DNA from: Candidatus Brevundimonas phytovorans
GTDB lineage: Bacteria > Pseudomonadota > Alphaproteobacteria > Caulobacterales > Caulobacteraceae
Length of the DNA: 64,000 bases
NCBI GenBank assembly: GCA_029203145.1
Contig: CP119309.1
Coordinates: forward strand, 1,386,472 to 1,450,471
Reading direction: 5' to 3'
Shown here: one piece after another, positions 20,827 through 31,405 of the stretch
Layout: each line of letters starts with the position of its first letter
Numbering within the stretch: position 1 is the first letter of the stretch
The notes under the pieces: model-generated
The model's database searches: none
What the model saw: only the letters and a program-made list of their open reading frames with translations
Told to the model about the DNA's origin: nothing
Position numbers and translations under genes: made by a program

Positions 20827-21213
20827 TCAGAATTCCCCCAGCACGGCCGTCAGCTTCTGCTTCAGCACAGCGTGCGTGAAGGGCTTGATGATGTAGCTGT
20901 TCACGCCCGCTTGCCGGGCGGCGATGACGTTCTCGATCTTGGCCTCAGCCGTGACCAGCACGAAGGGCAAGGCCCTGGTTTTGGGCTCGGCGCGCACCGC
21001 CTTCAACAGTTCGAACCCCGTCATCGGCGCCATGTTCCAGTCGGACAGGACCAGTCCATATCCATTCGCGGCGATCATCGTCAGCGCCGTCGGCCCGTCC
21101 GTCGCCTCGTCCACATTCATGAAGCCGAGCTGGTTCAACAGCCCGCGCACGATCCGAACCATTGTCTTGTAGTCGTCAACAACCAGGATCTTCATCGATT
21201 TATCGACAGCCAT
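20827..21213 (-). CDS. cheY: Chemotaxis response regulator
   Basis: ILVVDD, LSDWNMAPM, VTAE, IKPF single-domain receiver. Confidence 0.93.
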   Translation of the reverse strand: MAVDKSMKILVVDDYKTMVRIVRGLLNQLGFMNVDEATDGPTALTMIAANGYGLVLSDWNMAPMTGFELLKAVRAEPKTRALPFVLVTAEAKIENVIAARQAGVNSYIIKPFTHAVLKQKLTAVLGEF

Positions 21214-21280
21214 GCCTTCCCCCAATCACCCTCCGTGACCCCAAAACAAGAACACCGATATTCTGAACAAATTCTGGACA

Positions 21281-21294
21281 TTGATTCAGATCAA
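21281..21294. promoter_or_regulatory. FNR/FixK-type box
   Basis: TTGAT-TCAG-ATCAA, exact match to TTGAT-N4-ATCAA, 68 nt upstream of cheY ATG. Confidence 0.7.
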
Positions 21295-21546: not shown

Positions 21547-24402
21547 GTGGACGAGATCTTGGGCGACTTCATCGCTGAGACCCGCGAGGGCCTAGAGGCG
21601 CTGGACAGCGAACTTGTGCGTTTCGAGCGTAATCCGCACGACCCCGAGCCCCTGGCCAGCGTCTTTCGCCTGATGCACACCATCAAGGGCGCGTGCGGCT
21701 TCATCGGCCTGGTGCGACTTCAAAGGATCGCCCACGCGGCGGAAGAGGTTCTAGGCGGTTTCCGCGACGGCTCTCTGATCGTGACCTCCGCCGCCGTCAC
21801 CACCATCCTGGAAGCCGTGGACGTGATCCGCGGCCTGATCGACGTTCTGGACGCAACGGGCCAAGAGCCGACCGGCGAGGACGGCGCGCTGATACATCGC
21901 CTCGAAGCGGCCTGCGTGGCCGTCGCGTCGGCCTCGCCGCCTCCGGCGACCTCAACCAGACCCCTGATCGAACGAATTGGCGGCGACGCTACACTGGACG
22001 CCGCCGCCGAGGCGGCCGCTGCGCGCCTGATGCGGTTGGCCCCGTTTGAGTCTCTGCTCGGCGCCGCCGACCCCATCCTGTTGCAGGCGGCCCTGTTGCA
22101 GGGCCTGCTGGGCGCCGCTCGCGGCAGCGAGGCCGCCACCCTGAGCCGGGCGCTGGAGGATATCGCCGAGATTCGCCTTGACGCCGAAATGCTGGACACC
22201 CTGTTCAGCGTAGTCGCGGCGGCGCTGGAGGCCTTGGACGCCTCGCCCGAGGACGTGGCGGAGTTGCGCATCCGCGCTCAGATCGGGACGAACGCCGCCG
22301 CACCGGCCTCGGCCCCGCCCGCGCCTGAAGACGTCGCGTTCGTCGCCGGCGTCGGCAAGTCCGCCGCCACCATCCGCATCAACGTCGAGGTGCTGGAACA
22401 GCTGATGCGCTCGGTCAGCGAACTGGTGCTGATCCGCAACCAGATGATCCAGACCCTGCGGCTGGAACCGGAAAGCCCCTTCAAAGGTCCGCTGCATCGC
22501 CTGAATCAAGTGACCAGCGAGATCCAGGAGAAGGTCATGGTCGCCCGGATGCAGCCGATCGGCGGCGCCTGGGCGAAGCTGCCGCGTCTGGTGCGCGATC
22601 TTGAGCAGGAACTCGGCAAGCGCATCGAACTGCATATGTCCGGTCAGGAGACTGAACTGGACCGACAGGTCATGGAGCTGATCCGCGACCCGCTGACCCA
22701 CATGATCCGCAACGCCGCCGATCACGGACTGGAAACCACGGAACAGCGCCGCGCCGCCGGCAAGTCCGAGGCGGGCCGCATCACCCTGGCCGCGCGCCAC
22801 GAAGGCGGGGCCATCGTCATCGAGGTGTCCGACGACGGGCGCGGCCTGTCGGTGTCGCGCCTGCGAGCCAAGGCGGTCTCTCTGGACCTGCTGACCGCCG
22901 CCGAAGCCGAGCAGATGAGCGACGCCGAGGCGATGCAACTGATCTTCCGCGCCGGTTTCTCGACGGCGTCCCAGGTCACCAGCGTCTCGGGCCGGGGCGT
23001 CGGCATGGACGTGGTGCGCTCCAACATCGAACAGATCGGCGGGGTGATCGAACTGAGATCCACCGAGGGTCAAGGCGCCTGTTTCACCGTCCGCATCCCC
23101 CTGACCCTGACCATCGTCTCGGCCCTGATCGTCGAGGCGGGCGGCGAGCGGTTCGCCCTGCCCCAGTCGTCGATCATCGAACTGGTCAGCGCCAGCGGCG
23201 CCTCGGGCCGCTGTATCGAACAGATCGAAGACGCGCCCGTCCTGCGGCTGCGCGAGCGCCTGTTGCCGCTGGTGTCGCTACAACGCCTGCTCAAGCTGGA
23301 CGACGAGGCCCCGCCCCAAACCCAGGGCAAGGCAGCCAACGAAACCTGCATCGTCGTCACCCATTTCGGAGCCAGCACCTTCGGCGTCATCGTCGACCGG
23401 GTCTTCGATATCGAGGAGATCGTGGTCAAGCCGGTGGCCGGGGTGCTGCGCCACCTCAACCTCTATTCCGGCGCGACCATCCTCGGCGACGGGGCGGTCA
23501 TCCTGATCCTGGACCCCAAGGGCACGGCGCGCACCGCCGGGGTCGATCAGATTTCCGGCCACCTGGCCGGGCTCGCCAGCGACGCCGCCCGCAAGGCCAA
23601 CGCCGCCCCGCCGCCGAAGGAGGAAGCCCTGCTCCTGTTCCGCGCCGCCGACGCGACCCTGCGCGCCGCCCCGCTGACCACCGTGTCCCGCATCGAAGAG
23701 GTCGAGGCCGCCCAGATCGAACAGGTCGAAGGCCGCGCCGTGCTTCAATACCGTGGACGGCTCATGCCGATCCTCGGCGCCGACGGTCGCGCGCCGGACT
23801 GGAGCGGCCCCGGTCGTCGCCCCCTGCTGGTCTTCGCGCGCGGCGATCAGGCCCTGGGCATGTTGATCGGCGAGATCGTCGACATCGTCGAGACCGCAGC
23901 CCAGCCCGAGATCAACAGCGCGGGCGGACTGACGCTGGGCAGCCTGATCGTCATGGACCAGGCCGCCGACCTGATCGACGTCGACGCCTATTGGCGGCGA
24001 GCCTTCGACGCCGCCGCGACGACGGAGGCCAGCCCATCCGGCGACGCCCTCTCCGCCCCCATCGCCGGCCTGAAACGTCTGCTGATCATAGACCCCAGCA
24101 CCTTCACCCAGTTGCTGCTGGGGCCGCTGCTGGCGCGCGCCGGCTATGTCGTGATCGTCGCCCCGGACGCCGAGGCGGCTCTGGCCCACCACGACGCCAA
24201 CGAGGTCTTCGACCTGATCCTAGCCGACCTTCAGCCCAGCCGCGCGCGCGAGTTCGCCCGGATTTTGGCCAGCGCCGAGCAGTGGCACGCCACGCCGCTT
24301 CTCAGCCTCAGCCTGCTGAACGGCGGCGGTCCCGCGCTGGACGCCACCCGACTGCTGGACGCCGTTTCCAGCGCCCTGACGCCCGAAAGCGCGGCGGCGT
24401 GA
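21547..24402 (+). CDS. cheA: Hybrid chemotaxis kinase: Hpt - globin-like insert - dimerization - HATPase - CheW - CheW - degenerate REC
   Basis: HTIKG, HMIRNAADHG, DDGRG, GFSTA, GRGVGMDVV; two CheW repeats; GTG start after AGGAGG. Confidence 0.95.
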   Translation: MDEILGDFIAETREGLEALDSELVRFERNPHDPEPLASVFRLMHTIKGACGFIGLVRLQRIAHAAEEVLGGFRDGSLIVTSAAVTTILEAVDVIRGLIDVLDATGQEPTGEDGALIHRLEAACVAVASASPPPATSTRPLIERIGGDATLDAAAEAAAARLMRLAPFESLLGAADPILLQAALLQGLLGAARGSEAATLSRALEDIAEIRLDAEMLDTLFSVVAAALEALDASPEDVAELRIRAQIGTNAAAPASAPPAPEDVAFVAGVGKSAATIRINVEVLEQLMRSVSELVLIRNQMIQTLRLEPESPFKGPLHRLNQVTSEIQEKVMVARMQPIGGAWAKLPRLVRDLEQELGKRIELHMSGQETELDRQVMELIRDPLTHMIRNAADHGLETTEQRRAAGKSEAGRITLAARHEGGAIVIEVSDDGRGLSVSRLRAKAVSLDLLTAAEAEQMSDAEAMQLIFRAGFSTASQVTSVSGRGVGMDVVRSNIEQIGGVIELRSTEGQGACFTVRIPLTLTIVSALIVEAGGERFALPQSSIIELVSASGASGRCIEQIEDAPVLRLRERLLPLVSLQRLLKLDDEAPPQTQGKAANETCIVVTHFGASTFGVIVDRVFDIEEIVVKPVAGVLRHLNLYSGATILGDGAVILILDPKGTARTAGVDQISGHLAGLASDAARKANAAPPPKEEALLLFRAADATLRAAPLTTVSRIEEVEAAQIEQVEGRAVLQYRGRLMPILGADGRAPDWSGPGRRPLLVFARGDQALGMLIGEIVDIVETAAQPEINSAGGLTLGSLIVMDQAADLIDVDAYWRRAFDAAATTEASPSGDALSAPIAGLKRLLIIDPSTFTQLLLGPLLARAGYVVIVAPDAEAALAHHDANEVFDLILADLQPSRAREFARILASAEQWHATPLLSLSLLNGGGPALDATRLLDAVSSALTPESAAA

Positions 24403-24923
24403 ACGCGCTCAACCCTACGACCGAGGCCGGGCTGGTCTCGGTCCAGATCGGCGGCCAGACCTTTGGCGTGCCGGTGCTGGAGGTGCAGGACGTGATCGCC
24501 GAGACCGCGATCAACCGCGTGCCCCTGGCCCCGCCCGAGATCGCCGGTTCGTTGAACCTGCGCGGCCGCATCGTCACCGCCATCGACATGCGCCGCCGCC
24601 TCGGCCTGCCGCCACAAGCCGAAGACCAAAGAGCCAGCGGCGTTTCGGTCATCGTCGAACAGGCCTCAGGCGAGCTCTACGCCCTGATGGTCGATGACGT
24701 CGGCGACGTGCTGTGGCTGCCGCCCTCGGCGCACGAGCCGACGCCGCCGACCCTGTCGCCCGCCTGGCGCGACCTGTGCGACGGCCTCTACCGGCTGAAA
24801 GATGACCTCATGCTGGTGCTGCGGACTGAGGCGGTCCTGACCCTGGCCCCGCCGCCTGTCGGCGACACCCCCGATACCCCTCGCCGCACGGCGGACCTTG
24901 TCACTCACGGAGACCGATCATGA
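24399..24923 (+). CDS. cheW: Chemotaxis coupling protein
   Basis: [36 protein letters not shown]; GTGA overlap with cheA stop. Confidence 0.92.
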
Positions 24924-26530
24924 CCAACGGAGCCACGGCGCGCAGCGCCCGTCCCCTCGCCCCTCGCAGCCTGGACCAGACCGCTCAGGCCTCGGCCGAA
25001 TGGACGCCCGACTTCCGGCAGTTGCTGGAAGACGCCCCGTTCAACGTCATGATCTGCGACCTGATCGACTTCCAGATCACCTATGCCAACAAGGCGACGC
25101 TGACGACGCTGCGATCGATTGAACACGTCCTGCCGATCCGGGCCGACGATCTGGTCGGCGCCTCGATCGACGTCTTCCACAAGGCCCCGGCGCATCAGCG
25201 CCGGATGCTGGCCGACCCGCGCAACCTGCCCCATCAAGCCACCATCGAGATCGGCGGCGAGTTCCTGGACCTGCTGGTCAGCGCCGTGCTGGATGACCAG
25301 GGCCGTTACGTCGCCGCCATGACGACCTGGTCGCTCCAGACCGAACGGGTCAAGGCCGAGCGCGACAACCAGCGCCTGCTGCAGATGCTGGACGACATGC
25401 CGCTCAACGTCATGCTGTGCGAGCCCGAAGAGCTGCGTCTGACCTATGTGAACCGCCGCTCCATCGAGACCCTGCGCCCGCTGCAACACCTGCTGCCGAT
25501 CCCGGTCGATCAGATGCTGGGCCAGTCCATCGACATCTTCCACAAGCACCCCGAGCATCAGCGCCGCATGCTGGCCGATCCGCGCAGCCTGCCGCACCGG
25601 GCCATGATCCAGTTGGGCGATCAGAAGCTGGACCTCAACATCGCCGCCGTGAAGAACCCCGAGGGGCGGATGACAGGCATGATGCTGACCTGGGGGGTCG
25701 TGACCGAACAGGCCCGCTTCATCGACCGGGTCAACGACTTCAGCCAGGACGTCGCCGGCGCCGCCGCCGCCCTCAGCACCATGGCCCAGGGCATGGCCGC
25801 CAGCGCCGAGGAGACCAACAGCCAGGCCTCAGCCGTCGCCGTCGCCTCGGACGAGGCCTCGTCCAACGTTCAGACCGTGGCTGCCGCCGCCGAAGAACTG
25901 TCAGCCTCGATCCAGGAGATCACCCGTCAGGTCGAGCAGTCCAGCAGCATCTCACGCCACGCGGTCGAGGAAGCCCTGTCCACCGACGAGACCATGCGCG
26001 GCCTGGCGGACTCAGCCGAGCGCGTCGGCGAGGTCGTCGGCCTGATCCAGGAGATCGCCGCCCAGACCAAGCTGCTGGCCCTGAACGCCACCATCGAGTC
26101 CGCTCGCGCGGGCGAGGCCGGCAAGGGCTTCGCCGTGGTCGCCTCGGAGGTGAAGAACCTGGCCGATCAGACGGCGCGCGCGACCAAGCAGATCGCCGAT
26201 CAGGTCAACTCGATCCAGAAGGCCAGCCACGCCGCCGTCAGCGCCATTGAAAGCATCCGCCGCACCATCGAACGCGCCAGCGAAGCCTCCTCGGCCATCG
26301 CCAGCGCGGTCGAGGAACAGGGCGCGGCCACGCAGGAGATCACCCGCAACGTCCAGGAAGCCGCCATGGGCACGCGTGAGGTCTCGTCCAACATCGTGGC
26401 CGTGACCGCCGCCGCCTCGGACAATGCTCAGGCGGCGACCGACATGCTGTCGGCCACGGCGGCCCTGACGGAAAAGGCGCGCGAACTCGACACCCTGCGC
26501 GCGGAGATCGAGTCCTTCATGCGCGGCTAG
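24920..26530 (+). CDS. Soluble chemoreceptor with two Aer2-like PAS domains
   Basis: No TM segments; [12 protein letters not shown] and [12 protein letters not shown] repeats; [31 protein letters not shown] hairpin tip. Confidence 0.93.
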
Positions 26531-26550: not shown

Positions 26551-27387
26551 TCAGACGGTGCGGGCGGCCTTGCCTGAGGCGCGGCGGAACAGCCCCGCCG
26601 CGCCGGGGGTCAGTTCAAAGGCGTCAGTCACGCCCAGCACCGTCTCGGCGCTGCCCAGAAACAGGCCGCCGTCCTCGGCCAGGGTCCGCGCCATGCGTTG
26701 CAGCACGGCCCGCTTCTGATCCACGTCGAAATAGATCAGGACATTGCGGCAGAAGACCACGTCGAACACGCCCGGCAGACTGTCGCTCAACAGGTTGTGC
26801 GGACGGAAACTGACCAGCGACCGCAAGTCGGGGCTGACGCGCCAGCCGTGCCCCTCGCGCAAAAACCAGCGATCGCGGCGCGCGTCGGTCAGCCCCCGAC
26901 GAACCTCGAAGTCGCTGTAGAGCCCCTCCTCCGCCTTCCTCAGGATCGGTCGCGACATGTCGGTGGCCACAACCTCCAGCCGCCACCCCGCCAGTTGAGC
27001 GCCCATCTCCTTCAACAGGATGGCGATGGAATAGGGCTCCTGACCGCTGGAACAGGCGGCGCACCAGATTCGCAGCGTCCGCGTCGCCGCCCGCGCCTCG
27101 ACCAGTTGCGGCAGGACCCGCCCGGCCAGCAGGTTGAACGGCGTGCCGTCGCGAAAAAAGAAGGATTCGTGCGTCGCCATCGCCTCGACGCAGCGAACCA
27201 GAAGCGGCTCCGCCGATGCCCCGCCGAGGCGCAACCGCTCCAGCAGCTGCGGCACGCCCGCCAGACCCTCGGCCCGCGCCAGCGGGGCCAAACGGCTCTC
27301 GACCAGATAGCCCTTGTGCGCGGTCAGAATCAGACCCGAACGGTCCTTCACCAGACGACAGAAGTGCTCGAAATCCGGCCCGGTCAC
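26551..27387 (-). CDS. cheR: Chemoreceptor methyltransferase
   Basis: FFRD, IWCAACSSGQEPYS, FCRNVLIYFD; GTG start overlapping cheB stop. Confidence 0.93.
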   Translation of the reverse strand: MTGPDFEHFCRLVKDRSGLILTAHKGYLVESRLAPLARAEGLAGVPQLLERLRLGGASAEPLLVRCVEAMATHESFFFRDGTPFNLLAGRVLPQLVEARAATRTLRIWCAACSSGQEPYSIAILLKEMGAQLAGWRLEVVATDMSRPILRKAEEGLYSDFEVRRGLTDARRDRWFLREGHGWRVSPDLRSLVSFRPHNLLSDSLPGVFDVVFCRNVLIYFDVDQKRAVLQRMARTLAEDGGLFLGSAETVLGVTDAFELTPGAAGLFRRASGKAARTV

Positions 27388-28445
27388 GCGGCGGTCTCCG
27401 TCACGCGTCTAAGCCAGGGCCCGATGTCGTCCAGCGGCAGAACCGCCTCGGCCAGCCCGGTCGCCGCCGCCGCCGCGGGCATGCCCCAGACGGCGCTGGT
27501 CGCCTGATCCTGGGTGATGAATCGCCCCCCGGCGCGCACCACCGCCTCGCAACCCAGCGCGCCGTCCGCACCCATGCCCGTCAGGATGGCCGCGAGCGCC
27601 CCGTCGCCATAGACGGCGGCCAGGCTTCGCAGCATGGGATCTACAGCCGGGCGACAGAAGTGCTCGGGCGCCCCTTGGTCCAGCCGGATGACGGGTGAGG
27701 TCGGACCATTCTCGAGCCGCATATGCCACCCCCCGGGCGCGACATAGATATGGCCAGGCCGTACCGGCTCGCCGTCCTTGCCCTCGACGCAGGGACGGCC
27801 CGCCGCACGTCCGATCTGCTCAGCCAGCAGCGTGGTGAAGGTCGCAGGCATGTGCTGCGTCACAAAGACAGGCTGCCACCCGACCCCGCCCTGCAAGGCC
27901 CGGAACAGGTTCAGCAAGGCGGGTGGCCCGCCGGTCGAAGCGCCGATCCCCAGAGCTCGCACCACAGGCCGGCGCGTGGGCGCATAGCGAGGCACGGAGG
28001 TCGGGCTCGAGGCGAGGCTCACGCGCGAAGGCCGACGCGTCGCCAACGCCTTCACCCGCGCGATCAGGTCGCGTCCGAACTCGGCGGCGGTGGCGATCCC
28101 CGCTTCAGGCTTGGCCACATAGTCGGCGGCGCCGATCCTCAAGGCCTCTAGACTGATCTCGGCGTTGCGGCGCGTCAGGGTCGAAACCATGATCACCTTG
28201 ACCGCCGGGTAGTCCACGACGATCCGCCTCAGCGCCGTCATCCCGTCCATGACCGGCATCTCGATGTCCAGCAGCACGACATCCGCTGCATGCTGGCGCA
28301 GTTCCTTCAGGGCCAACTCGCCGTTCGACGCCGCCGCCGCGACTTCAATCTGAGGCTCCGCCTCCAGCAGGCGCCGCAGGACACCGCGAACAACAGCTGA
28401 GTCGTCAACAATTATGACTTTAATCGCCTGTGAGGCGTTCATCAT
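27384..28445 (-). CDS. cheB: Chemoreceptor methylesterase (REC + esterase)
   Basis: VDDSAV, LDIEMP, GASTGG, QHMP, LTGMGADG. Confidence 0.95.
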   Translation of the reverse strand: MMNASQAIKVIIVDDSAVVRGVLRRLLEAEPQIEVAAAASNGELALKELRQHAADVVLLDIEMPVMDGMTALRRIVVDYPAVKVIMVSTLTRRNAEISLEALRIGAADYVAKPEAGIATAAEFGRDLIARVKALATRRPSRVSLASSPTSVPRYAPTRRPVVRALGIGASTGGPPALLNLFRALQGGVGWQPVFVTQHMPATFTTLLAEQIGRAAGRPCVEGKDGEPVRPGHIYVAPGGWHMRLENGPTSPVIRLDQGAPEHFCRPAVDPMLRSLAAVYGDGALAAILTGMGADGALGCEAVVRAGGRFITQDQATSAVWGMPAAAAATGLAEAVLPLDDIGPWLRRVTETAA

Positions 28446-28708: not shown

Positions 28709-29554
28709 ATGGCTTTCAATATTCTAATGCTTACAGGCGAGCAAATACGCGCCGCCCGCGCCCTTTCGCGGATCGAGCAAACCGAGCTGGCGCAAATTTC
28801 CGGCCTCAGCCTTGAGACCATCAAACGGCTGGAACGTCTCCGCGGGCCGGTAGACGCCAACGCCCGGACGCTGCGCGCGATCCAGGACGCCTTTGAAACC
28901 ATCGGGGTGCAGTTCGACGGCGACGACACCGGCAAGGTCGGCGTGCTGCTTCGCCCCATGCGACAAGCCGCCCTGCGCCCCTCCGGCCTTGCTGCCGAAC
29001 CGCAATCGACGCCGCATCTGCATCGGCTGATCTGCCATAGCCGGATCGCGAGACAGGGCGAGGAAAGCCTCCGGCCGGCCCTGACCGCCCTCCATGACGA
29101 AGCCCAGGCCCTTCACGCCGATCTCGGCGTCACCGGCATCATCTTCGCACGCGAGGGCCATCTGCTTCACGCCCTGGAGGGCGACAGGGAGGTCGTTCAT
29201 CAGGCCTATCGTGACATGGCCCGCTCCCCCCGACGCCAAGGCCTTCACCTGCTCGAAGATCGCGCCACCACCCGGCGTCAATTCCCGGAATTCAGCTTCT
29301 GCTGCGGCCTGTTCACGGAGGACCTCGATGTCATGGCCGGTGAAAAGGCGCTTCAGCGTGGGTTCAGTCCCGGCGACCTGACGCCGAACGCGGCCTCGGG
29401 CTTGCTGGGCATCGCCCGCGACCTTCAACAAACCGCGCCCCGCAACGCACGCGGAAACCCCCGCGCCTGCACCCTCGCCTCATCCTGCCTCGACACCACC
29501 TGCGGCCGCGGCCGGTCCGCGCCAACCCACGCCCTTGCCCCTCAGGCGCACTGA
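28709..29554 (+). CDS. XRE-family HTH fused to a degenerate BLUF-like domain with Cys-containing tail
   Basis: QIRAARAL...Q.ELA...GLS..TIKRLE HTH; LHRLICHS...LGVTGII...HALEG...RRQF BLUF pattern; start may be ATG 28727. Confidence 0.78.
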   Translation: MAFNILMLTGEQIRAARALSRIEQTELAQISGLSLETIKRLERLRGPVDANARTLRAIQDAFETIGVQFDGDDTGKVGVLLRPMRQAALRPSGLAAEPQSTPHLHRLICHSRIARQGEESLRPALTALHDEAQALHADLGVTGIIFAREGHLLHALEGDREVVHQAYRDMARSPRRQGLHLLEDRATTRRQFPEFSFCCGLFTEDLDVMAGEKALQRGFSPGDLTPNAASGLLGIARDLQQTAPRNARGNPRACTLASSCLDTTCGRGRSAPTHALAPQAH

Positions 29555-29734: not shown

Positions 29735-31405
29735 ATGAAGAGCTCCAATGGCGGCGAACAACCCAGCGCCAATGACTCCCGGTCGCGCTGGCGACATGCC
29801 CGCGACGCACTGAAAAAGACGTTGGCGGTTCAGGCCGGCCTTCCCGAAACCCTCGAGGACATCTTCAGCAGCATCCTGAACATCTCGTCCGAGGGGATCA
29901 TCGTCGCCGATCAGGACATGCGGATTCTGCTGTTCAGCAAGGGCGCGGAGGTCATCTTTGGCTATACCGCGCCTGAGATCCTGGGGCAGTCGATCGACCT
30001 GCTCATTCCGCACGACCGGCGTGAGGCCCACCAGCAGCGGGTTCAGGGTTTCGCCGCCGGCGCCATCCTGAGCCGACGCATGAGCAATCGCCAGGACGTG
30101 ACCGGTCTGACCAAGGACGGACGACTGGCGCCAATCGAGGTGGGCCTGTCCAAGACCACGACCCGCGGCGGGATGATCTACACCGCCATCATCCGCGACA
30201 TTTCCGAAAGCCTGCAGGCCGAGGCCGAACTGAACCAGGCGGTCAGCGAGGCCAATGCCGCCAACGCCGCCAAGTCCGCCTTCCTGGCCGCCATGAGCCA
30301 TGAGGTGCGCACCCCGTTGAACGGCGTCCTCGGCATGGCTCAGGCTATGGCGCGCGACCCTCTGCCGCCCAGGCAGGCCGAGCGCCTGGAGGTCATCCGC
30401 CAGTCGGCGGAGAGCCTGCTCGGCATCCTCAACGACATGCTGGACCTGTCCAAGATCGAGGCTGGCAAGCTGGAGATGGAGACTCTCGAGTTCGACCTCG
30501 ACGACCTGATGGCCGGGACTCACAACACCTTTTCCGCGTTGGCGGCGCAGAAGGGCCTGCAGTTCGACCTGCACGTCGCCCCTCGCGCCAGGGGCGCCTA
30601 TCTCGGCGATCCGCTAAGGCTGCGCCAAGTCCTGAACAACCTGATCTCGAATGCGATCAAGTTCACCGAACGAGGCCTGGTCCAGGTGGACGTGGATCGC
30701 CAGGACGCCCTGCTGATGATCTGCGTGCGGGATACGGGGATGGGCATTTCGCCCGACGCCCTCACGCGCCTGTTCAACAAGTTCGAGCAGGGCGATCTTT
30801 CGACGACGCGCCGTTTCGGGGGCACCGGCCTGGGTCTGGCCATCTGCCGGGATCTGGTCCGTCTGATGGGCGGCGACATATCGGCGGACAGTTCCCTCGA
30901 TGAAGGCGCGACCTTCACCGTTCAACTGCCGCTGGAACACGTCGGTCACGCCCCCGCCCTGCCCGACCTGGCCCGTACAACGGAGTCCGCCGAAGACGCC
31001 CGCCAGGTCCGCCTGCTGGTCGCAGAAGACAATCGCGCCAATCAACTGGTCATCGACACCCTGTTGCGGCAGGTCGGCATTGCCCCTGTCATTGTCGAGA
31101 ACGGGCGTGCGGCTGTCGCCGCCTGGGAGGATCGGCCCTGGGACCTCATTCTGATGGACGTCCAGATGCCGGAAATGGACGGCCCGACCGCGACCTCGAT
31201 CATCCGTCGCCGAGAACTGGACAACGGCCAGGCCCGCACGCCTATCCTGGCCCTGACGGCCAACGCCATGGATCACCAACTGCACGAGTATCGTCAGGCG
31301 GGCATGGACGGCCTGATCGCGAAGCCGATCGAAGTCGACAAGCTGTTCGCCGCCATTTCCCAGGCCATCAAGACCGGCGGCGTCACCGCCCAGGTTTCTC
31401 GCTGA
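29735..31405 (+). CDS. PAS-HisKA-HATPase-REC hybrid histidine kinase
   Basis: [34 protein letters not shown]...MDVQMP...TANA...KP. Confidence 0.93.

Follow-up and report, generated by a model that had tools for sequence, protein, structure and literature searches.

How is a gas signal passed from a heme-PAS domain to the kinase-control hairpin of a chemoreceptor when no HAMP relay stands between the two? This question is raised by a single gene in a 64,000-nucleotide stretch of the Candidatus Brevundimonas phytovorans genome (contig CP119309.1, positions 1,386,472 to 1,450,471; hereafter the window, from whose first letter all coordinates are counted). The gene, at 24920..26530 on the plus strand, encodes a soluble chemoreceptor of 536 residues (P0001) with two PAS domains of the Aer2 heme type and a signalling hairpin of 38 heptads (38H). 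Mechanistic work on PAS-heme chemoreceptors has so far been done on Aer2 proteins, which carry a di-HAMP unit between sensor and kinase-control domain; in this receptor and its relatives the same heme-PAS module leads straight into the coiled coil of the output, and the register of this joint is strictly conserved. We propose, with a probability of roughly three in four, that the protein is a cytoplasmic, probably homodimeric, gas-sensing chemoreceptor in which two Aer2-type heme-PAS domains are wired without HAMP to a 38H hairpin. The sensor type itself is well known.

The PAS repeats and their predicted heme pockets

The two repeats, PAS1 (residues 30-139; 25007..25336, on the plus strand like every feature of the receptor gene) and PAS2 (residues 163-260; 25406..25699), the latter being the module wired to the output, align over 112 residues without gaps at 49% identity (E = 4e-45). 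A preliminary description of this DNA had pointed to two similar PAS repeats with H87/W137 and H208/W258, and its numbering was exact. Pfam gave MCPsignal and one PAS_8 match on the whole receptor. Sequence searches of the PDB with phmmer matched the PAS region to Aer2 chains only, namely Pseudomonas aeruginosa PaAer2 3vol (E = 1e-13, the match listed for PAS1) and 4hi4 (E = 5e-12, listed for PAS2) and Vibrio cholerae VcAer2 6ceq (E = 2e-11), with 33-39% identity between the receptor PAS domains and those of PaAer2 and VcAer2. H87 (CAC, 25178-25180) and H208 (CAC, 25541-25543), the proposed proximal heme ligands, align on the His of the PaAer2 motif FHKNPAHQR, and W137 (TGG, 25328-25330) and W258 (TGG, 25691-25693), the proposed O2-stabilising residues, on the Trp of QWTDRT.

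The same assignment is supported by predicted structure. In an AlphaFold2 model built from 63 family sequences (mean predicted local distance difference test score, pLDDT, 83.8), PAS1 (30-139) is followed by a helix (141-159), PAS2 (163-260), a helix (262-396), a one-residue turn and a last helix (398-535). Superposition of the PAS model on 3vol, 4hi4 and 6ceq gave target template-modelling scores of 0.81-0.83 and root-mean-square deviations of 1.3-1.8 Å at 34% identity. In the alignment of the 63 sequences H87, Q93, L116, L118, W137, T141, H208, L237, L239 and W258 are invariant, and the second His of each PAS (H105 and H226) is nearly so; the conserved Leu pairs (L116/L118 and L237/L239) lie in the H-beta strand, and an invariant Thr stands four residues past the Trp. 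We take the PaAer2 counterparts of these conserved pocket positions to be H234, L264, W283 and H251. Sequence and fold thus both match Aer2, and the ligand His, the O2 Trp and the other pocket residues are kept, which bears out the earlier assignment of the repeats as Aer2-type heme-PAS domains. Given this match and the conserved His, Trp and pocket, we strongly infer that both PAS domains would bind heme b, with O2 binding helped by the Trp.

The layout itself would also suit another cofactor. A PAS-PAS-MA arrangement without transmembrane (TM) helix or HAMP is that of Azospirillum brasilense AerC, which binds FAD (PMC13401364), and a His-less PAS derivative in Niveispirillum Cache receptors, described below, indicates that heme loss occurs in this lineage; the receptor might then carry FAD or no cofactor at all and act as a redox or energy sensor or as a scaffold of a cytoplasmic array. 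However, the Aer2 pocket is complete in both PAS domains, His included, the PDB search gave the PAS region no sequence match of the FAD type (as in E. coli Aer or NifL), and FAD- and FMN-type PAS folds superposed far more poorly than Aer2, with NifL giving only a weak match (score 0.62, deviation 4.0, against 0.83 and 1.3-1.8 for Aer2). We regard a flavin-binding or cofactor-free receptor as very improbable. AerC and the present receptor share the features of a soluble alphaproteobacterial PAS-PAS-MCP protein (MCP, methyl-accepting chemotaxis protein) without TM helix or HAMP, but the AerC domains are FAD-binding PAS_FAD2 with an F-alpha Trp, whereas those of the receptor are of the heme type, Aer2 cluster 119 (PMC10468136). 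Another known relative in layout is IcpB of Azorhizobium caulinodans (PMC13401364), likewise an aerotaxis receptor of an alphaproteobacterium, soluble and with a heme-PAS joined to the signalling domain in a simple arrangement. Compared by description only, IcpB differs in having a single PAS, assigned to Pfam PAS_9 and given no cluster number (PMC10468136 supplement), and this PAS has been described as close to those of Aer and AerC (PMC8563088).

The presence of two heme-PAS domains in tandem, which had been put forward as notable, is not in itself new. Receptors of this kind have already been characterised among Aer2 proteins, with two PAS domains in VcAer2 and three in both VvAer2 of Vibrio vulnificus and LiAer2 of Leptospira interrogans (PMC10107281).

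From the last PAS domain into the signalling hairpin

The connection between sensor and output is the unusual part of the receptor. In the AlphaFold2 model the last strand of PAS2 (residues 251-260) runs via W258-G-V-V-T262-E into an unbroken helix of 135 residues. This helix (residues 262-396; 25703..26107; pLDDT 83-92) is the N-arm of the kinase-control hairpin and comprises 19 heptads. It leads to the tip A397-G-E399-A-G-K-G403 (26108..26128), the CheA/CheW-binding region, within invariant alignment columns 385-408, and the C-arm helix (residues 398-535; 26111..26524) returns over another 19 heptads to stop one residue short of the C-terminus, with no linker. Heptads were counted from the tip Glu, E399, and four residues are left over at the C-terminus. 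Candidate methylation pairs are found in the N-arm at E297/E298 and E325/E326 and in the C-arm at E465/E466. The linker between the two PAS domains is also a helix (residues 141-159; 25340..25396), as seen in the model and in keeping with a 121-residue module period of the family, and it opens with a W-x-x-x-T-E junction, as does the passage from PAS2 into the stalk.

As a positive control we used a bona fide Vibrio Aer2 (L025:3449-6238; 929 residues, four heme-type PAS units). Pfam at E <= 0.01 detected both HAMP and HAMP_2 in this control and no HAMP in the receptor, and by the model there is no space for a helix-connector-helix HAMP between PAS2 and the hairpin. Similarly, the control ends in EWEEF after a linker of about 40 residues, whereas the receptor end (...EIESFMRG) does not match the pentapeptide tether x-[HFYW]-x2-[HFYW]. 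No TM helix was found in the receptor, the highest Kyte-Doolittle mean over 19 residues being 1.19. The preliminary description had noted no obvious HAMP, no C-terminal pentapeptide and no TM helix, and it was right in all three respects.

That description also held the signalling domain to be alphaproteobacterial rather than Aer2-type, and suggested assignment of the heptad class as a check. By counting and alignment, the 19 + 19 heptads make the receptor a 38H protein. This assignment is based on total length, on the offset from a 44H receptor, and on a multiple alignment with the control Aer2 and alphaproteobacterial receptors; pairwise HMMER alignments with Tsr and E. coli Aer, whose gaps fell asymmetrically in the low-complexity coiled coil, did not serve by themselves as a basis. 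In the multiple alignment the receptor has a net seven residues (one heptad) more per arm than the 36H Vibrio Aer2, and against the 44H Thermotoga Tm1143 it gives two ungapped HMMER segments offset by 21 residues, which fits 38H. Measured in the same way, the spacing between His and tip is 192 residues in the receptor and 276 in the control. Moreover, no internal gaps are needed to align the signalling domain, at 44-59% identity, with alphaproteobacterial Cache-HAMP, protoglobin and HAMP-PilZ receptors, the last of which share the layout of A. brasilense Tlp1, itself a 38H receptor (PMC6759762). A class of 38H rather than 36H, the lack of di-HAMP and pentapeptide and the gapless alphaproteobacterial alignment all agree with the earlier view of this domain.

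These features bear directly on whether the receptor is a plain orthologue from the Aer2 family of F7 systems that an alphaproteobacterium has acquired and that works through HAMP relays. The "Aer2 core" has been defined as the last PAS-heme domain, a di-HAMP unit and the kinase-control domain (Stuffle 2022, PMC10107281), and all of 130 Aer2-like receptors (130/130) belonged to class 36H, with the pentapeptide tether called a fundamental feature (Ortega 2020, PMC7184735). Orthology is favoured by the best NCBIfam match of the receptor, which is the Aer2 equivalog model, by its Aer2-type PAS domains, and by its solubility and the place of its gene in a che cluster, both shared with PaAer2. However, on this model (NF041847, Vibrio Aer2) the receptor scores 225.7 bits, where the cut-off is 1200 and the control reaches 1806, and the match covers only model positions 42-305, the PAS part; the di-HAMP and pentapeptide are missing, the hairpin is 38H, and the PAS units group apart from those of canonical Aer2. 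Aer2-family membership is refuted by three tested features (di-HAMP, 36H and pentapeptide), and an orthologue signalling through HAMP relays can hardly be expected. What the receptor shares with Aer2 (PaAer2, also known as McpB, VcAer2, VvAer2 and LiAer2) is the proposed E-eta His ligand, the I-beta Trp, solubility and a gene sitting in a che cluster beside cheA, cheW, cheR and cheB. What sets it apart, in addition to the missing di-HAMP, the class 38H and the lack of a C-terminal linker and pentapeptide, is a Leu or Val for Asp at the PAS-output junction, a separate PAS clade, and an alphaproteobacterial rather than a gammaproteobacterial F7 context.

Direct attachment of a PAS to a 38H hairpin is also seen in membrane-bound sCache receptors of Niveispirillum (L006:7104-9176 and L008:286-2274), each with one derivative PAS in this place. 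Here Gln (LNIFQAD) stands in place of the ligand His and LPW in place of LPH, with the I-beta Trp retained, and this PAS is probably a heme-less offshoot.

A family of HAMP-less multi-PAS receptors

With its two PAS domains, the receptor is the minimal form within a large family of HAMP-less receptors found mostly in alphaproteobacteria. The family is defined by at least one Aer2-type PAS module of about 121 residues, by a 38H or 34H hairpin to which the last such module is fused in fixed register, and by the lack of a TM helix or HAMP, and the Brevundimonas protein has all of these features. Pfam HAMP was listed for none of the best 120 database matches, and the ending [NEDG]W[EQ][ET]F occurs in 0/121 family proteins. 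By source names and fetched loci, the hosts are Caulobacterales, Rhodospirillales, Kiloniellales and unclassified Alphaproteobacteria. Motif detection counted two to four Aer2-type PAS units per protein, and the module period is exactly 121 residues in 191/216 intervals. Among 337 PAS units, which were picked for having the His motif, a Trp at His+50 is present in 331 (331/337) and a Leu at His+31 in 335 (335/337). Between the last His and the tip Glu lies a distance of exactly 191 in 74/115 family proteins, a value that the receptor has as well, and this points to a fixed register between PAS and hairpin. In a further 11/115 this distance is 181 or 177, with a C-arm shorter by 14 residues. 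A spacing of 195 was seen in 15/115 relatives (e.g., P0010, P0013, P0031) and corresponds to four extra residues, not a whole heptad, inserted where PAS and helix meet or close by, which would shift the helical phase.

The family varies at both ends. About a third of the 120 matches listed have an N-terminal Bac_globin or Globin domain by Pfam, and the closest non-Brevundimonas relatives among these matches, at 73-77% identity, show a PAS-PAS-38H layout with or without a truncated haemoglobin of about 137 residues. A combination of Bac_globin, PAS and MCP has been listed in silico in seven genomes, among them one from the Caulobacterales (PMC6194562), and the homologues at 73-77% identity, which add an N-terminal truncated haemoglobin to the PAS-PAS-38H body of the receptor, match it. 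Receptors of that combination (Corallococcus coralloides Cc_4972, Phenylobacterium zucineum HLK1) carry the globin, unlike the Brevundimonas receptor; in the 2018 report (PMC6194562) the PAS was not recognised as of the Aer2 heme type, the absence of HAMP went unremarked and no experiments were made. Nothing relevant came from a search of the literature that combined Aer2 with Caulobacter, Magnetospirillum, Azospirillum or Rhodospirillum. At the other end, a two-PAS family member of 499 residues on a plasmid of Indioceanicola profundi (P0122; L026:5929-7428) lacks 14 residues per arm and is therefore 34H, so that the same sensor array serves two receptor length classes.

PAS domains of the same type, about 50% identical and with IDVFH..HQRR and LTWALVT motifs, also occur in annotated EAL/GGDEF proteins of Shinella (L027:2338-4701) and Ralstonia (L028:2383-4713), as well as in EAL/GGDEF proteins of Burkholderia and of Agrobacterium vitis plasmids. 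Their presence there means that the Aer2-type module feeds enzymes of cyclic di-GMP metabolism, too.

How the sensor came to be combined with this hairpin can be read in part from the PAS phylogeny, which the preliminary description had named as a check. A tree of PAS units was built from 72 units of the family, six canonical Aer2 units and two units of cyclic di-GMP enzymes. The canonical Aer2 units lie on one side of a branch supported by an SH-like approximate likelihood ratio (SH-aLRT) of 91, and a constraint that makes the family units a single clade is not rejected (approximately unbiased, AU, test, p = 0.82). The family units thus stand apart from canonical Aer2 units. Within the family, the nearest neighbours of PAS1 and of PAS2 are the units that hold the same position in Caulobacterales-type relatives (support 99 and 98 in a separate tree, and 98 for PAS2 in the tree just described), and last-position units, PAS2 with them, tend to cluster. 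Because each groups with the units of its own position, PAS1 and PAS2 can be read from their sequences as old paralogues with position-specific conservation, which fits the split into modulator and transmitter described for VcAer2 and VvAer2 (PMC10107281). A recent duplication of one PAS from the other was considered and rejected, given only 49% identity and the grouping of each with same-position units.

A suggestion of domain shuffling had been made for this gene, and only part of it stands. As a local event it finds no support, in view of the conserved PAS-PAS-38H family, the separate PAS clade and the old paralogues. It holds only in the sense of a deep sharing of one PAS subfamily among outputs, which are 36H hairpins reached through a di-HAMP in gammaproteobacteria, 38H or 34H hairpins attached directly in alphaproteobacteria, and EAL/GGDEF domains in Shinella, Ralstonia and Burkholderia. 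Since the layout is widespread, the PAS clade separate and the PAS1/PAS2 pair old, the recombination between sensor and output would be ancient and not local.

Ligand, signalling route and the chemotaxis cluster

Taken as a whole, these observations allow a signalling route to be proposed. Each PAS would hold one b-type heme on its conserved His (H87, H208), and bound O2 would be stabilised by a Trp (W137, W258) in the final beta strand. As in Aer2, binding of the gas to the PAS2 heme may shift the Trp/Leu pair and the I-beta strand, and this shift would enter the coiled coil directly and alter the activity of the co-transcribed CheA/CheW. CheA would pass the signal to the adjacent CheY, PAS1 would modulate PAS2, and the adjacent CheR and CheB could adapt the receptor at its Glu-Glu pairs without the help of a pentapeptide tether. 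By analogy we infer O2 as the ligand, and likewise how the two PAS domains share their tasks, which sign the signal takes and what output it has in the cell. With two PAS domains, no globin, membrane anchor or HAMP, and as the sole receptor of its cluster, the protein offers a compact system for relay-free coupling between I-beta strand and helix, and it could help to explain the role of an upstream PAS. The practical weight is modest, and the sensor chemistry is expected to be Aer2-like.

The nature of the signal allows another reading. CO and NO are also bound by Aer2 PAS-heme domains. The hemes could therefore report NO, CO or their own redox state, with the pathway responding to nitrosative or redox stress, and in this respect the truncated haemoglobin of close relatives, a fold often tied to NO chemistry, and the unusual extra His residues of PAS2 are suggestive. 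Against this stand the O2-stabilising Trp, kept in nearly all units counted above, the similar O2 affinity of all characterised Aer2 PAS domains (PMC10107281), and a regulatory site that points to O2-linked expression. The site is a perfect FNR/FixK-type box, TTGATTCAGATCAA (TTGAT-N4-ATCAA), at 21281..21294 in the spacer between the divergent cheY and cheA genes. It is the only match in the 64-kb window, and four Brevundimonas loci (L001, L002, L004, L005) have it in the corresponding position, though the locus of a Caulobacter metagenome-assembled genome (MAG; L003) does not; from general knowledge of FNR/FixK sites, it suggests oxygen-dependent expression. A signal other than O2 is, on balance, rather unlikely.

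Several points weigh against our proposal of a HAMP-free, heme-based receptor or limit its detail. The AlphaFold2 model is that of a heme-free monomer, and its predicted template-modelling score (pTM) is low, at 0.39, owing to an uncertain arrangement of the domains. The class 38H comes from counts and alignments and not from hidden Markov models of the classes. The PAS2 motif of the Brevundimonas lineage, FHKHPEHQ (25541-25558), carries extra His residues, with a His at +2 from the ligand and, at +4, a Glu instead of the Ala of the family consensus FHKNPAHQ; near the heme, these residues might alter coordination. The Asp of the Aer2 "DxT" junction between PAS and output (W-T-D-R-T in PaAer2, W-V-D-I-T in VcAer2) is replaced by L139 in PAS1 and V260 in PAS2, and given this change to a hydrophobic residue, coupling may differ from that in Aer2. 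Finally, no experimental study of HAMP-less Aer2-type receptors was found in a literature that included few subscription papers.

A broader picture can be sketched only tentatively, and we would put its chances at well below even. In this picture the HAMP-less multi-PAS-heme receptors would form a family of their own rather than variants of Aer2, with a rigid, fixed-register W-x-[VIL]-[VI]-T-E junction leading into the 38H/34H coil and with sensor arrays that grow and shrink by 121-residue modules of PAS plus helix. The Brevundimonas form would be the minimal one, placed in an FNR/FixK-controlled island private to the receptor and with its own cytoplasmic array, and the globin might survive, without heme, in CheA. 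An alignment of CheA residues 140-239 (21964-22263, between Hpt and dimerisation domain) with residues 19-121 of the truncated globin of P0024 is in register and pairs LIERIGGDATLDAA with LFERLGGAAAVDAA, but at 26% identity and E = 55 (BLASTP) it is non-significant and is not relied on here.

The limits of the receptor gene are well supported. Its open reading frame (ORF) opens with ATG, closes with TAG and has a GC content at third codon positions (GC3) of 0.90, in the range of genuine genes of this 67% GC window. The receptor ATG overlaps the stop codon of cheW (ATGA), and a GGAG lies 8 nt upstream of the start, in the place of a Shine-Dalgarno sequence; overlap and GGAG are both kept in three further Brevundimonas genomes, which indicates that the N-terminus is correctly placed. 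The Brevundimonas of the window and B. bullata show 98% amino-acid identity. Residues 1-29 (24920..25006) are predicted to be disordered, with pLDDT below 50 for residues 1-27. Where relatives at 76% identity have their truncated-haemoglobin extension of about 137 residues (Bac_globin in P0024, L003), the receptor has no N-terminal globin. A longer ORF including one was considered and rejected, as there is an in-frame stop upstream, 24920 is the first start after that stop, and the start is conserved.

The cluster around the receptor is compact and contains no other receptor gene. On the plus strand, cheA (21547..24402), cheW (24399..24923) and the receptor gene form a cheA-cheW-mcp operon with cheA first and the receptor last, the cheA stop overlapping the cheW start (GTGA). 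The CheA protein of 951 residues has, by Pfam, Hpt, dimerisation and HATPase domains, two CheW-like stretches and a receiver-like tail; cheW was likewise assigned by Pfam. Divergent from cheA on the minus strand is cheY (20827..21225), a single receiver domain of 132 residues. The minus strand also bears the methyltransferase gene cheR (26551..27387), convergent with the receptor gene, and the methylesterase gene cheB (27384..28445; REC and CheB_methylest), both assigned by Pfam. The order cheY, cheA-cheW-mcp, cheR-cheB is also found in a Caulobacter MAG. Adjoining cheB are genes for a helix-turn-helix (HTH)-BLUF protein (28709-29554) and for a soluble PAS-HisKA-HATPase-REC hybrid kinase (29735-31405), so that the che cluster is flanked by additional sensor genes.

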